Assembly (NCBI RefSeq): GCF_003018115.1
Contig: NZ_CP027457.1
Length of the DNA: 64,000 nt
Reading direction: 5' to 3' (one strand)
DNA from: Escherichia coli
GTDB lineage: Bacteria > Pseudomonadota > Gammaproteobacteria > Enterobacterales > Enterobacteriaceae
Shown: piece after piece, positions 26,516-32,139 of the stretch
Position numbering within the stretch: the stretch's first letter is position 1
How the letters are laid out: each line of letters starts with the position of its first letter
Translations under genes and position numbers: made by a program
The notes under the pieces: model-generated
The model's database searches: none
Told to the model about the DNA's origin: nothing
What the model saw: only the letters and a program-made list of their open reading frames with translations

Positions 26516-28105
26516 ATGAACAATAACGATCTGGTCGCGAAGCTGTGGAAGCTGTGCGACAACCTGCGCGATGGCGGCGTTTCCTATCAAAACTACGTCA
26601 ATGAACTCGCCTCGCTGCTGTTTTTGAAAATGTGTAAAGAGACCGGGCAGGAAGCGGAATACCTGCCGGAAGGCTACCGCTGGGATGACCTGAAATCCCG
26701 CATCGGCCAGGATCAATTGCAGTTCTACCGTAACCTGCTGGTACATCTGGGCGCCGACAATCAAAAGCTGGTGCAGGCGGTGTTCCAGAACGTCAACACC
26801 ACCATTACCCAGCCAAAACAGTTGACCGAACTGGTCACAAATATGGATTCGCTGGACTGGTATAACGGTGCGCACGGTAAGTCGCGCGATGACTTCGGCG
26901 ATATGTACGAAGGGCTGTTGCAGAAGAACGCCAACGAAACCAAGTCTGGCGCGGGCCAGTACTTCACCCCGCGTCCGCTGATTAAAACCATTATTCATCT
27001 GCTGAAACCGCAGCCGCGTGAAGTGGTGCAGGACCCGGCAGCAGGTACGGCGGGCTTTTTGATTGAAGCCGACCGCTACGTTAAGTCGCAGACCAATGAT
27101 CTGGACGACCTTGATGGCGATACGCAGGATTTCCAGATCCACCGCGCGTTTATCGGCCTCGAACTGGTGCCCGGCACCCGTCGTCTGGCGCTGATGAACT
27201 GCCTGCTGCACGATATTGAAGGCAACCTCGACCACGGCGGCGCAATCCGTCTGGGCAACACTCTGGGTAGCGACGGCGAAAACCTGCCGAAGGCGCATAT
27301 TGTCGCCACTAACCCGCCGTTTGGCAGCGCCGCAGGCACCAACATTACCCGCACCTTTGTTCACCCGACCAGCAATAAACAGTTGTGCTTTATGCAGCAT
27401 ATTATCGAAACGCTGCACCCCGGCGGTCGTGCGGCGGTGGTGGTGCCGGATAACGTGCTGTTTGAAGGCGGCAAAGGCACCGACATTCGTCGTGACCTGA
27501 TGGATAAGTGTCATCTGCACACTATTCTGCGTCTGCCGACCGGTATTTTTTACGCGCAGGGCGTGAAAACCAACGTGCTGTTCTTTACCAAAGGCACGGT
27601 GGCGAACCCGAATCAGGATAAGAACTGCACCGATGATGTGTGGGTGTACGACCTGCGTACCAATATGCCGAGCTTCGGCAAGCGCACGCCGTTTACTGAC
27701 GAACATCTGCAGCCGTTTGAGCGGGTGTATGGCGAAGATCCCCACGGCTTAAGCCCGCGCACTGAAGGCGACTGGGAATTCGACGCAGAAAAAAGTGAAA
27801 TTGCCGACAGCGAAGAGAACAAAAACACCGACCAGCATCTGGCTACCAGCCGCTGGCGCAAGTTCAGCCGCGAGTGGATCCGCACCGCGAAATCCGATTC
27901 GCTGGATATCTCCTGGCTGAAAGATAAAGACAGCATTGACGCCGACAACCTGCCGGAGCCGGATGTATTAGCGGCAGAAGCGATGGGCGAGCTGGTACAG
28001 GCGCTGGGCGAACTGGATGCGTTGATGCGTGAACTGGGGGCGAGCGATGAGGCGGATGCACAGCGTCAGTTGCTGGAAGAAGCGTTTGGTGGGGTGAAGG
28101 AATGA
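26516..28105 (+). CDS. hsdM: Type I restriction-modification M subunit (N6-adenine methyltransferase)
   Basis: 529-aa ORF; catalytic NPPF motif and AdoMet-binding region (DPAAGTAGFL). Confidence 0.95.
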   Translation: MNNNDLVAKLWKLCDNLRDGGVSYQNYVNELASLLFLKMCKETGQEAEYLPEGYRWDDLKSRIGQDQLQFYRNLLVHLGADNQKLVQAVFQNVNTTITQPKQLTELVTNMDSLDWYNGAHGKSRDDFGDMYEGLLQKNANETKSGAGQYFTPRPLIKTIIHLLKPQPREVVQDPAAGTAGFLIEADRYVKSQTNDLDDLDGDTQDFQIHRAFIGLELVPGTRRLALMNCLLHDIEGNLDHGGAIRLGNTLGSDGENLPKAHIVATNPPFGSAAGTNITRTFVHPTSNKQLCFMQHIIETLHPGGRAAVVVPDNVLFEGGKGTDIRRDLMDKCHLHTILRLPTGIFYAQGVKTNVLFFTKGTVANPNQDKNCTDDVWVYDLRTNMPSFGKRTPFTDEHLQPFERVYGEDPHGLSPRTEGDWEFDAEKSEIADSEENKNTDQHLATSRWRKFSREWIRTAKSDSLDISWLKDKDSIDADNLPEPDVLAAEAMGELVQALGELDALMRELGASDEADAQRQLLEEAFGGVKE

Positions 28106-29430
28106 GTGCGGGGAAATTGCCAGAGGGGTGGGTTGAAACTCAATTAGAAAATATCGTTGATATTTTAGACTCAATGCGTGTCCCGGTTAATAATTCTGAG
28201 AGACAATCACGCATTGCAGGAAAAAAAGAAAATGAACTTTATCCCTATTTTGGTGCTACCGGTGAAGTCGGTAAAATTGATGATTATATTTTTGATGAAG
28301 AACTTGTTGCATTAGGTGAAGATGGTGTTCCTTTTTTTGATGGGCACAAAAATAAGGCTTATATGCTGTATGGTAAAACGTGGGTGAATAATCATGCTCA
28401 TGTAATAAGAGCTATCTCTGGACTAAGCCATAACAAGTATTTATGCCATTATCTTAACCAATTCGACTATCATGATTATGTAAACGGCGGGACCAGGCTT
28501 AAACTTACACAAGCGAATATGAGAAAACTACCTGTTAGTTTAGCGCCTCTCGCCGAACAAAAAATCATCGCAGAAAAACTCGATACGCTGCTGGCGCAGG
28601 TAGAGAGCACCAAAGCACGTCTTGAGCAAATCCCACAAATCCTGAAACGTTTTCGTCAGGCGGTGTTGGCTGCTGTTGTTAATGGAAAATTATCAAAGAA
28701 CACGAAGCAATGGGAAATATACTTATTAAAAAATCTTTGTACTAGCATTTCAGATGGCGATCATCAGGCTCCTCCAAAATCAGAAACAGGAGTGCCTTTC
28801 CTCGTAATCTCCGATGTTAATAAAGGGGTGATTGATTTTGATAATGTAACCAGATGGGTGCCTGAATCTTACTACCAATCGCTAAAAGAAATTAGAAAAC
28901 CATGCCAATATGATATTTTATATACAGTTACAGGTTCTTATGGAATACCTGTAATTGTTAACGACAATAAACCATTTTGTTTCCAGCGACATATTGCCAT
29001 CATCAAGCCAAACAGAAATTTAATTGATCATAGATTCTTAGCTTTCTATTTAGAATCACCACAAATTCTCAAACATGCAAGTGATGTTGCTACTGGGACC
29101 GCACAAAAAACAGTATCGCTGTCGAGTCTCCGAAATTTTGAGATCTCTGTTCCCCCTTTAAAAGAACAACACGAAATCGTTCGTCGCGTCGAGCAACTCT
29201 TCGCCTACGCCGACACTATTGAAAAACAGGTCAACAACGCCCTGGCCCGCGTCAACAACCTGACGCAATCCATTCTGGCAAAAGCGTTCCGTGGTGAACT
29301 CACCGCCCAGTGGCGGGCCGAAAACCCGGAATTGATCAGCGGAGAAAACAGCGCCGCCGCGTTGCTGGAGAAAATCAAAGCTGAACGCGCAGCCAGCGGG
29401 GGTAAAAAAGCCTCGCGTAAAAAATCCTGA
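28102..29430 (+). CDS. hsdS: Type I restriction-modification S (specificity) subunit, family IA, with two target-recognition domains unlike EcoKI
   Basis: 442-aa ORF overlapping the hsdM stop (ATGA). Conserved N-terminus MSAGKLPEGWV, central LAEQKIIAEKLDTLLAQVESTKAR... and C-terminal EIVRRVEQLFAYADTIEKQV... repeats match IA-family HsdS as recalled; the two TRD-coding stretches are markedly AT-rich. Confidence 0.9.
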   Translation: MSAGKLPEGWVETQLENIVDILDSMRVPVNNSERQSRIAGKKENELYPYFGATGEVGKIDDYIFDEELVALGEDGVPFFDGHKNKAYMLYGKTWVNNHAHVIRAISGLSHNKYLCHYLNQFDYHDYVNGGTRLKLTQANMRKLPVSLAPLAEQKIIAEKLDTLLAQVESTKARLEQIPQILKRFRQAVLAAVVNGKLSKNTKQWEIYLLKNLCTSISDGDHQAPPKSETGVPFLVISDVNKGVIDFDNVTRWVPESYYQSLKEIRKPCQYDILYTVTGSYGIPVIVNDNKPFCFQRHIAIIKPNRNLIDHRFLAFYLESPQILKHASDVATGTAQKTVSLSSLRNFEISVPPLKEQHEIVRRVEQLFAYADTIEKQVNNALARVNNLTQSILAKAFRGELTAQWRAENPELISGENSAAALLEKIKAERAASGGKKASRKKS

Positions 29431-29442
29431 ACATTATTTTCT

Positions 29443-29467
29443 GGCGCACCTTTCCGGTGCGCTTTTA
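29443..29467 (+). terminator. Terminator hairpin after hsdS
   Basis: GGCGCACC-tttcc-GGTGCGC followed by TTTTAATT. Confidence 0.55.
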
Positions 29468-29564
29468 ATTATTTCACGCCAATCATAATTCACGCAAATA
29501 TATTTAAATCACTCCAGAAATTGCCCATTTTATTCTATTTTTAGCTGGACTTTCCCTGTATTTA

Positions 29565-29580
29565 CTGATGATATATCCAG
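29565..29580. promoter_or_regulatory. LexA (SOS) box CTG-N10-CAG upstream of symE
   Basis: CTGATGATATATCCAG read directly, with an overlapping second CTGTATTTACTG half-site; symE is known to be SOS-induced. Confidence 0.5.
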
Positions 29581-29584
29581 GTAT

Positions 29585-29665
29585 TTAGCGCGGTGCGGAT
29601 GTGCGCCAACACACCCGCACCGCTCATCACAATCACTATTTATGGAGAATAGTAATCATGACTGA
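29585..29665 (-). ncRNA. symR: Approximate position of SymR antisense sRNA (type I antitoxin) opposite the symE 5' UTR/start codon
   Basis: Placed by established knowledge that SymR is transcribed antisense across the symE translation-initiation region; a 9-bp-stem hairpin GCGGTGCGG...CCGCACCGC (29590..29623) is visible. Ends are not determinable from sequence alone. Confidence 0.4.
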
Positions 29666-29999
29666 CACGCATTCTATTGCACAACCGTTCGAAGCAGAAG
29701 TCTCCCCGGCAAATAACCGTCAATTAACCGTGAGTTATGCGAGCCGCTACCCGGATTACAGCCGTATTCCCGCCATCACCCTGAAAGGTCAGTGGCTGGA
29801 AGCCGCCGGTTTTGCCACCGGCACGGCGGTAGATGTCAAAGTGATGGAAGACTGTATTGTCCTCACCGCCCAACCCGCCGCCGCCGAAGAGAGCGAACTG
29901 ATGCAGTCACTGCGCCAGGTGTGCAAACTGTCGGCGCGTAAACAAAAGCAGGTGCAGGAGTTCATTGGGATGATTGCGGGTAAACAGAAAGTCGCCTGA
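29658..29999 (+). CDS. symE: SOS-induced toxin SymE (AbrB/MazE-fold, type I TA system)
   Basis: Translation from [52 protein letters not shown]... (113 aa); start set at the internal Met with GGAGAA upstream, by recall of SymE. Confidence 0.85.
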
Positions 30000-30045
30000 T
30001 ACATTGACCCGGTAGCGCCAGTGCTACCGGGTATTATTCGCCGCG

Positions 30046-32139
30046 TTATACCAACGCGCTCTCCATCTGTTTTTCAAATGCCTGACGAATTAATCCCATA
30101 ATATAAGGAAGTTGTGCGAGGTCGCTGAAACCAATTTCCACATCGCCATTGCCCCATCGCCCAACATTTGTCACATCTTTGGCAATACCTTTCGGATCGA
30201 CCAGTTCATGAAACTGCATATTAAGCGACAATCGCAGTCGGCTTTTTTGCGGCACAACATCAACAAAATTCGTTTCAGCTTTAAACGCAATATAGAGCTT
30301 CAATACTTCCTGCGTGATCCCTGCGTCCAGGCGCATAACTTCATCGCTAAGATGATCGAATAACACCCGGCTATGCGAACCATCAGCAAGAAAAGGATAA
30401 TCACTCAGGCTGTAACTGGTTTTGTTTTCCGGCTGCCCCCGATAAACAGCTAAAACCTCTTCAGGAAGAGAAGGCGCTTGCCAGACCTGAACCGCGAGAT
30501 CGGCCAGACGATCGGCTCGGGCGTGAATGGCGGCTTCATCCCATTTTTCGCACTGTCCAAGACCGATATTCAAATAAAGCGGGCTATGCTTAAAGCCGTC
30601 TTCAATATCGCGTTTTTCCGCGAAAGGTCTGTCACTGTAGCGGGAGTTATAGCGCGTTAAAGTGAGATTCCCCAACGTATGTAACAGTTCTTTATGCACA
30701 CGCTGCCAGTCGCTTCCCAGCTCTTCGCGCCATTTAGCCGACAAATTTTCGTTCTGCGGCATAATATGTTCAATCGTAAACTCTTCCACGCGCTCTCTGC
30801 GTTTATCGTTTTCCAGTCGTCGTAACCAGTAGCTGCGACTACGGAAGTTATAGAGATCGCGAACTTTTAATTCCCGTTTAAATTCATCATCGTTGGGGAA
30901 ACGACGATATGAAGGTAGATTCAAAAAATGTACCTGAATACTTTCCAGATAATTTTCTTTATTAATAACTTTATAAAAAGTGGCAAATGTCTTGTTCAAA
31001 GAATTTGTCGGAATTGCACATACTGCACGGCGGAAAACATAAGATTCAATTAAACGAATTATGCTCAGGAAATCTTCGTGAGACAAATCGTCATTTTTAT
31101 AGTCATGATAAAGCGCCAGTAAGAAAGGATACGCCACATCAACCTTTAACTCGCGCAAATCCTGAAAAGCCGTAGCAAGCGATTTGTCACTTTCTTTTCC
31201 CAATGCCATTGCACAGTAATACTCCGCGTAGATGTGAATATCTTCAACCAGCCGATCTACGCCTTTTTCAGCAACACTCTGGCTGCGGGCATGGAGTTTA
31301 AATGCCTCATAGACTTCATCTGTCCGAGGGATCTCCCCCGTTTTTACCGTCAGATAATGACGCATAAAACTGTCAAAATATTCGCTGTAACCTTGCTGAC
31401 CAAAAGCGACTTCCATTGGACGCCAGTGATCTTCATACAACCGGGTTTGATGCTCTGGTTCGAGGCCCATCAGAATAAAATTGCGCACCAGATCGGCCTG
31501 ACTTAACGCCTTACCGGTGGAGTTCATACTTTCAAAAATCAGTTGCGGATTATCCTGACCACGATTAAGCGCCACATCGACAATTAATAACTTTGCTAAC
31601 CCACGACATAAGGGGATCAAGTCATCACCGAGTTTGGCAATTTGCTCATCAAAGAAAGTAAAGTTTTCCATTATTCGATGGGAATAGTTTTCTGGCATTG
31701 GTCTTTGTTTTATTAACGCCAGTAAACTGTCTTTATCAGTCTCGGTCAGCAGTAATTTAAAACCTTTCTCGCCGGACTCATAAGGATTGAGCAAATAATA
31801 ATTACGCAATTTCATTGCCGAAAAGCCATCAAAAACTTCGTCTTCGCCAAGATGGCGCGATAAAGCCTCAATCAGCAACATTGCGGTCGTCAGCCGCTGC
31901 TGACCATCAATGACCAGCAACGGAGAAATACCAGAAACCTGATACAATCCCTGCTCTATATAAACAACCGAACCGATAAAATGCGCTGATATATCGTCAC
32001 GCTTTCCTGCACGAATGATGTCGTCCCAAAGTTGCCGACATTGTTGCCCGGTCCATGAATAAGTCCGTTGATAAATGGGAATAACAAACTGCTGCGAACG
32101 TTTTAAAAAATCGAGTAGGCGAGCTTCTGTAGCTTTCAT
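30046..32139 (-). CDS. Single-chain GmrSD-family protein (N-terminal DUF262 ParB-like NTPase, C-terminal DUF1524 His-Me finger nuclease); putative type IV modification-dependent restriction endonuclease
   Basis: 697-aa ORF; N-terminal motifs FVIPIYQRTYSW and DGQQRLTT (DUF262); C-terminal EHIMPQ ... LGNLTL (DUF1524/HNH-like). Gene is AT-rich relative to flanks and sits where mcrBC lies in K-12. Confidence 0.8.
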   Translation of the reverse strand: MKATEARLLDFLKRSQQFVIPIYQRTYSWTGQQCRQLWDDIIRAGKRDDISAHFIGSVVYIEQGLYQVSGISPLLVIDGQQRLTTAMLLIEALSRHLGEDEVFDGFSAMKLRNYYLLNPYESGEKGFKLLLTETDKDSLLALIKQRPMPENYSHRIMENFTFFDEQIAKLGDDLIPLCRGLAKLLIVDVALNRGQDNPQLIFESMNSTGKALSQADLVRNFILMGLEPEHQTRLYEDHWRPMEVAFGQQGYSEYFDSFMRHYLTVKTGEIPRTDEVYEAFKLHARSQSVAEKGVDRLVEDIHIYAEYYCAMALGKESDKSLATAFQDLRELKVDVAYPFLLALYHDYKNDDLSHEDFLSIIRLIESYVFRRAVCAIPTNSLNKTFATFYKVINKENYLESIQVHFLNLPSYRRFPNDDEFKRELKVRDLYNFRSRSYWLRRLENDKRRERVEEFTIEHIMPQNENLSAKWREELGSDWQRVHKELLHTLGNLTLTRYNSRYSDRPFAEKRDIEDGFKHSPLYLNIGLGQCEKWDEAAIHARADRLADLAVQVWQAPSLPEEVLAVYRGQPENKTSYSLSDYPFLADGSHSRVLFDHLSDEVMRLDAGITQEVLKLYIAFKAETNFVDVVPQKSRLRLSLNMQFHELVDPKGIAKDVTNVGRWGNGDVEIGFSDLAQLPYIMGLIRQAFEKQMESALV

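Follow-up and report, generated by a model that had tools for sequence, protein, structure and literature searches.

The window analyzed here, a 64,000-nt stretch of Escherichia coli chromosome, contains what is almost certainly the E. coli symE-symR locus, an SOS-inducible module resembling type I toxin-antitoxin systems, with repression stacked in two layers. The initial annotation had proposed dual control of symE by LexA and an antisense RNA; the LexA box, SymR and symE were all found, and that interpretation is supported with refinements. LexA control, repression by SymR and SOS induction are taken here from experiments with strain K-12. The system, described in 2005-2007, is already known, and the locus represents a common allele of it. 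The strain has an intact copy of a textbook SOS-controlled module in its commoner E. coli allele, which carries little weight as a discovery. The comparison across genera provides evidence that the position of the LexA operator and the strand-specific structure of SymR are under selection. The features of the locus are listed in Table 1.

Table 1. Features of the symE-symR locus and its neighbors (positions in the window).
Feature	Position	Strand	Basis or remark
hsdM	26516-28105
hsdS	28102-29430
Intrinsic-terminator-like hairpin 3' of hsdS	29443..29463	+	GGCGCACC...GGTGCGCT then TTTAATTATT; terminator scan
Predicted symE -35, TGGACT	29546-29551	+	Within GCTGGACTTT block conserved across genera
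LexA (SOS) box, TACTGATGATATATCCAGGT	29563-29582	.	Weight matrix, conservation, K-12 counterpart
Predicted symE -10, GATATA	29570-29575	+	Center of LexA box
symR, 77-nt antisense RNA (type I antitoxin)	29587-29663	-	Rfam RF01809
SymR 3' stem-loop, 15-bp GC-rich helix	29590-29623	-	Folds, compensatory changes
SymR 5' stem-loop	29626-29662	-	Fold; pair counts
symE Shine-Dalgarno (SD), GGAG	29644-29647	+	10 nt 5' of ATG (29658-29660)
symE CDS, 113 aa	29658-29999	+	ORF, Pfam, K-12 alignment, PGAP of identical genome
symR -10, TAGAAT (+ strand ATTCTA)	29676..29671	-	Inside symE codons 5-7; 7 nt from SymR start
Tentative symR -35, TTCTGC	29694-29699	-	17 bp from -10; spacing, conservation; inference only
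GmrSD ORF	30046-32139	-	Adjoins symE, convergent

Gene neighborhood

The gene order in the window is hsdR-hsdM-hsdS-symE-GmrSD. Three complete E. coli genomes contain a 581-bp query (29430-30010) at 100% identity, and matches to it were found in 2872 of 5426. In one identical genome (NZ_CP024269.1) the order is hsdR, hsdM, an hsdS-type specificity gene, symE and a convergent GmrSD-type restriction gene. In the "immigration control" neighborhood of K-12, symE is annotated between hsdS and mcrBC; the GmrSD-type gene of the window fills the slot of mcrBC. It is an intact frame of 697 aa with GmrSD_N, GmrSD_C and DUF5655 domains. The frame is also intact in NZ_CP024269.1 (two mismatches in 8581 bp), yet PGAP lists a 388-aa CDS and a pseudogene fragment there, and this split annotation looks like an artifact. 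The terminator-like hairpin that follows hsdS has the same sequence in K-12 and probably insulates symE from hsdMS read-through.

Nine E. coli alleles from different hsd contexts were compared. The sequence on the 5' side varies with the neighboring gene up to about position 29537, just 5' of the predicted symE -35 element, where a conserved symER block begins that continues through symE. The left boundary of this block was constant next to hsdS of two kinds and next to hsdR of another type I family. Association of symE with restriction-modification islands had already been remarked by Kawano et al. (2007; PMC1891008). In E. coli ST131 strain 4993 (locus L010, positions 1-650) symE directly adjoins an IS1 element, which takes the place of the promoter, the LexA box, SymR and the first codons; the shortened symE is still called by PGAP.

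For comparison across species, one genome per species was scanned with a DNA pattern of 18 specified bases, which gave 49 loci. About ten of the matches were non-enterobacterial, as expected for 18 bases, and were removed by requiring a SymE-like ORF. The 36 loci kept had a SymE-like protein (38-97% protein identity) and enough upstream sequence. Together with the window and K-12 they make up an alignment of 38 loci, mostly from enterobacterial genera other than Escherichia (Citrobacter, Klebsiella, Raoultella, Kluyvera, Leclercia, Lelliottia, Enterobacter, Kosakonia, Pantoea, and others). Genes of hsd type adjoin symE in about 14 of the 36. Two contigs from metagenome-assembled genomes labeled Bacillota (L029 and L037) have an E. 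coli-like hsdM-hsdS-symE-GmrSD segment with 92-99% protein identity to the window; these are probably mis-binned or contaminating Escherichia DNA.

The symE gene and its product

The symE start codon is placed at the same position by the reading frame, by the alignment with K-12 and by PGAP in a 100%-identical genome. The identification of this gene as symE in the initial annotation is confirmed by a match to Pfam PF08845 (SymE_toxin; 75 bits vs. a gathering threshold of 29, profile positions 1-54 of 54) and by identity with K-12 SymE at 106 of 113 residues (94%). A purine-rich variant occupies the SD position in every aligned locus.

It has been shown in K-12 that SymE is toxic when made and that the antisense RNA prevents its synthesis (PMC1891008, PMC4147584). 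The basis of toxicity has been reassigned from endoribonuclease activity (2007) to nucleoid condensation through non-specific DNA binding (Thompson et al., 2022, as cited in PMC11894785), and the molecular activity, RNase or DNA-binding nucleoid protein, is disputed. The K-12 RefSeq label reads "nucleoid-associated protein SymE"; elsewhere PGAP keeps "endoribonuclease SymE". Such labels trail the 2022 reassignment and call for caution in annotation.

SymR and its promoter

On the minus strand, a full-length match to Rfam RF01809 (95.3 bits vs. a gathering threshold of 61, model positions 1-77 of 77, E = 8e-19) identifies SymR in the 5' region of symE, as had been proposed; it is the only Rfam match within 28500-31000. 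The initial annotation expected an RNA of roughly 77 nt over 29600..29670. The Rfam model bears out size and strand, and moves the span to the position given in Table 1. SymR covers the symE 5' UTR, the SD, the ATG and the first 6 nt of the CDS with perfect complementarity. It begins at nucleotide 6 of the CDS, in the same register as the annotated symR of K-12 (b4625, 77 nt). Full-length Rfam symR matches of 74-94 bits were found in all 15 cross-species loci tested. PGAP lists no symR in the matching genome, which makes the coordinates given here useful for annotation.

The promoter of symR lies within the symE CDS, outside the interval 29565-29665 flagged initially. In K-12, SymR was abolished by changing CATTCT to CACTCC at the symR -10 site (Kawano et al., 2007; PMC1891008), and the same CATTCT hexamer is found here at 29670-29675. 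The bases A29671, T29673, T29675 and A29676 are invariant in the 38 loci despite changing codons. Codon variation while the -10 bases stay fixed indicates that selection appears to act on the promoter, not on the protein. The codons at 29670-29678 range across genera from His-Ser-Ile (CATTCTATT) to Asp-Cys-Ile (GATTGTATT), and TAGAAT or TACAAT is kept. The tentative -35 element is a poor match to TTGACA and is confounded with conserved Pro/Ala-Glu-Val codons.

No canonical U-tract follows the SymR hairpin on its 3' side, and the terminator scan called the hairpin after hsdS but not this one. A LexA roadblock was considered as the determinant of the SymR 3' end and set aside by reasoning: the LexA box is only 5 nt away, nearer than expected for the active site of a stalled polymerase. 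The 3' stem-loop itself probably defines the 3' end and would give the RNA its stability.

Structure of SymR and its coding strand

SymR is predicted to fold into two long helices (MFE -43.7 kcal/mol, z = -7.7). The K-12 allele differs at seven positions and gives -37.8 kcal/mol with two internal mismatches. The 5' stem-loop presents the anti-SD sequence in its apical loop (CUCCAUA) and the anti-start codon in its 5' arm. Conservation of the structure was examined in an alignment of 43 SymR sequences from many enterobacterial genera. Standard pairs occupy 97% of the cells, compared with 24-53% when the partners are slid. Compensatory changes were found at 10 of the 15 pairs of the 3' helix. 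The pattern used for retrieval had partly fixed the 5' helix and left the 3' helix unconstrained.

The stable GC hairpin at 29590..29623 had been described as an element of the symE 5' UTR. Folding confirms that it is real: relative to shuffled controls, it reaches -23.4 kcal/mol on the plus strand (z = -4.5) and -28.8 kcal/mol on the minus strand (z = -6.2). It is mainly the 3' stem-loop of SymR and not primarily a 5'-UTR element. An alternative is that the hairpin has its main role in the symE mRNA, as a 5'-UTR structure with a stabilizing or regulatory function, and that its presence in SymR is incidental. The plus-strand hairpin is stable as well, and it stands at the 5' end of the predicted fold of the 98-nt leader, in which the SD lies partly in the loop of a weaker mirror hairpin. 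Stem-loops at the 5' ends of mRNAs can protect against decay. Against this reading, the two strands do not pair equally well. The G-U pairs of the SymR 3' helix become C-A mismatches in the mRNA sense, so that 97.5% of its cells are paired in the SymR sense vs. 84.5% in the mRNA sense; for the 5' helix the values are 96.5% and 71.2%. G-U pairs are abundant in the SymR sense, and both helices are therefore better paired on the SymR strand. SymR was the more stable strand in all 40 distinct sequences, and for the 3' helix alone in 39 of 40. The Rfam model counts the hairpin within SymR, and the hairpin may not fall wholly inside the symE mRNA. A principal role in the mRNA is thus unlikely. The strand asymmetry in pairing and stability points to selection of the structure on the minus strand, as the fold of SymR.

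Some variants of the hairpin were observed. Raoultella planticola (L046, L047) and Ca. Pantoea gossypiicola (L042, L043) have two symER copies each; within each pair the 5' stem-loops are nearly alike and the 3' hairpins strongly different. The tip of the 3' hairpin (29606-29611) reads CGCCAA on the plus strand here and TTGGCG in E. coli ATCC 25922 and KFu021 as well as in some other genera. Loci with a flipped tip, which include L008, L009, L011 and L025, keep the stem. Such a flip is of the kind that template switching within a palindrome would produce.

Over the alignment, the 3' hairpin shows fast compensatory change and tip flips, and the 5' stem-loop with the anti-SD is almost fixed. The 3' hairpin might set "specificity classes" that limit cross-talk between SymR alleles or copies, or it might give this over-abundant and very stable RNA a second, trans-acting role; we consider either idea very doubtful.

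Repression of symE by SymR

In the proposed mechanism, a constitutive and very stable SymR would be made from the opposite-strand promoter inside the symE CDS (29663 to 29587). Pairing of SymR at the SD and AUG would block ribosome binding and modestly lower the mRNA level. The folds suggest that pairing with the leader would be nucleated loop to loop. It has been shown in K-12 that SymR, with a stability exceeding 60 min, is present at about 10:1 over symE mRNA, and that repression is independent of RNase III and Hfq (PMC1891008). Without SymR, SymE protein rose about 7-fold and the mRNA about 3-fold (PMC1891008). The protein is also degraded by Lon, and the LexA, SymR and Lon controls are additive (PMC1891008).

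SymR could instead act mainly through transcriptional interference, mRNA decay or a separate trans function. Transcription of symR heads toward the symE promoter and stops 5 nt short of the LexA box. SymR at plasmid level eliminated symE mRNA, and possible extra functions were raised by Kawano et al. in view of the 10:1 excess (PMC1891008). However, SymR supplied in trans repressed SymE with symE promoter activity unchanged, and at native levels the effect on protein exceeded that on mRNA (about 7-fold vs. about 3-fold) with RNase III dispensable (PMC1891008). In addition, SymR exactly covers the SD and AUG. A main action other than blocking of ribosomes is decidedly unlikely on this evidence, and occlusion of the translation start by SymR is the preferred reading.

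The LexA operator: sequence and score

A LexA box had been proposed about 80 bp upstream of symE. The core CTG-N10-CAG (CTGATGATATATCCAG) is present at 29565-29580, with 77 nt from its 3' end to the symE ATG. The bare pattern was rejected as evidence, because it occurs 22 times in the window (12.6 expected; none of 100 shuffles reached 22) and is uninformative. A probable cause of the excess is the frequent use of CTG and CAG codons. The site at 29565-29580 alone among the 22 combines an AT-rich spacer with TA/GT flanks.

Scoring with a LexA weight matrix, a check named in the initial annotation, was carried out with a symmetric matrix built from 18 published boxes (Table 4 in PMC3009722), symE not being one of them. 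The box in Table 1 scored 14.4 bits, the top score in the 64 kb, and the K-12 version with ACAG 15.7 bits. The value is a moderate match, inside the leave-one-out range of the 18 known boxes (8.7-26.9 bits) at its weak end. Chance alone would give 0.28 sites of 14.4 bits per 64 kb, and this score was reached in 15% of the Markov-simulated windows. The matrix score by itself is only suggestive; since chance reaches it in 15% of windows, position and conservation carry the case for the operator. The CTG is followed by A in this box and by T or G in the known boxes. A value similar to the heterology index, computed from the same 18 sites, was 9.4 or 13.4 depending on orientation (K-12: 7.9 or 13.0). 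The published heterology index for K-12 symE is 7.9, on a scale from 1.8 to 13 in a table limited to indices below 14 (PMC11228462). In agreement with this index, the box is a genuine but weak-to-middling match.

The second-best matrix site in the window (TATTGGGGATACAAACAGTG, 48594-48613, 13.2 bits) lies inside the CDS of the inverse autotransporter iatD; its score is no better than chance, which would give 0.57 sites per 64 kb. The overlapping second LexA half-site suggested earlier did not hold up: it consists only of CTGT at 29556-29559, and among all registers scored from 29545 to 29574 none exceeded 0.6 bits. The CTGT is polymorphic and alternates with CCAT, which K-12 and roughly half of the E. 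coli strains sampled have.

The LexA operator: conservation and alleles

In 36 of the 38 aligned loci CTG-N10-CAG occurs at the same position; the other two have TTG, as does the proven dinG box. The 10-bp spacer varies (ATGATATATC, GTTAGATTTA, GGTAAATTTA, and others), in contrast to the CTG and CAG triplets, which show little or no variation. The best matrix site within 140 bp 5' of the ATG was always 85-91 nt away from it (38/38 loci), and the runner-up never exceeded 5.3 bits. Of the sequence data, this fixed position across genera argues most strongly for a working operator. Boxes of the form CCCTGATGATATGTACAGGT, with weak flanks and scores of 4-6 bits, occur in a sub-clade of Citrobacter, Klebsiella and Kluyvera loci, which may be poorly repressed.

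The box differs by one base (CCAG vs. ACAG) from that of yjiW/symE in K-12, which has been treated as a LexA site (PMC1891008). A C before CAG is frequent in known boxes (recN, dinI, ruvA, uvrD, cho, uvrB, dinB; PMC3009722). We infer that the one-base difference leaves LexA control intact. Of the two boxes, CCAG is the commoner in E. coli: a 40-mer query with this allele matched about 1976 genomes, 1179 of them exactly, and the corresponding query with the K-12 ACAG allele matched about 440. In E. coli KFu021 (L009) the CAG aligned to 29578-29580 is changed to CAA; LexA binding should be weaker there, and symE could be de-repressed.

According to the proposed mechanism, a LexA dimer would bind at 29563-29582, over the predicted -10 element and just 5' of the predicted mRNA start, and symE would be transcribed only after RecA-stimulated self-cleavage of LexA. 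In K-12, a LexA site and induction by mitomycin C have been reported for symE (PMC1891008). A 2024 RNA-seq study found no significant induction of symE by AZT, though expression was LexA-dependent (PMC11228462). It is extremely unlikely that the CTG-N10-CAG is a chance match kept by its overlap with the symE promoter rather than by LexA binding: the moderate score, the AT-rich spacer that doubles as the predicted -10 element (where some conservation could be promoter-driven) and the clade with 4-6-bit boxes favor that view, but the bases that do not vary are the CTG and CAG triplets read by LexA, beyond the -10-like center, the CCAG end is usual in known boxes, and the K-12 box one base away is accepted as a LexA site and associated with SOS induction (PMC1891008, PMC11228462).

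The predicted symE promoter

In the 38-locus alignment, T29546 and G29548 of the predicted -35 element are invariant and their neighbors at least 90% conserved. The -10 position reads TAGATT or TAAATT in other genera; A29571 and A29573 are at least 90% conserved and T29574 is invariant. The spacing between TGGACT and the -10-like hexamer is 17-18 bp. The transcription start of symE is not stated in the text of Kawano et al. (2007; PMC1891008). Because a simple scan called no sigma-70 consensus promoter for symE or symR, the promoter assignments made here are based on conservation and the published mutation of the -10 site.

Comparison with known systems

The closest relative is the K-12 pair symE (yjiW, b4347)/symR (ryjC, b4625), which shares with the window the hsdS-symR/symE order, the 77-nt register of SymR beginning at nucleotide 6 of the CDS, the CATTCT -10 site and the position of the LexA box. 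The control regions are 97% identical and the SymE proteins 94%. The two alleles differ in the LexA box (CCAG and 14.4 bits in the window vs. ACAG and 15.7 bits in K-12), in the bases just 5' of it (CTGT vs. CCAT) and in the downstream neighbor (a GmrSD-type gene vs. mcrBC). The seven differences in SymR make both helices continuous in the window allele (-43.7 vs. -37.8 kcal/mol).

Among other systems, the remaining LexA-controlled type I toxin-antitoxin loci of E. coli, tisB/istR-1 and dinQ/agrB, resemble symE/SymR in having a LexA box before the toxin gene and a constitutive small RNA that blocks translation (PMC4147584). In those systems, however, the toxin is a small membrane peptide, and the RNA, divergently encoded, has limited complementarity (PMC4147584). 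In contrast, SymE is a 113-aa soluble protein of the AbrB/MazE fold, and SymR is a fully complementary, unusually stable cis-antisense RNA. The hok/Sok system is similar in that the antisense RNA lies over the translation-initiation region of the toxin mRNA. Sok is unstable and its duplex is cut by RNase III, whereas SymR is stable and RNase III is dispensable (PMC1891008). A further difference is that Lon degrades the toxin of symE/SymR and not an antitoxin (PMC1891008).
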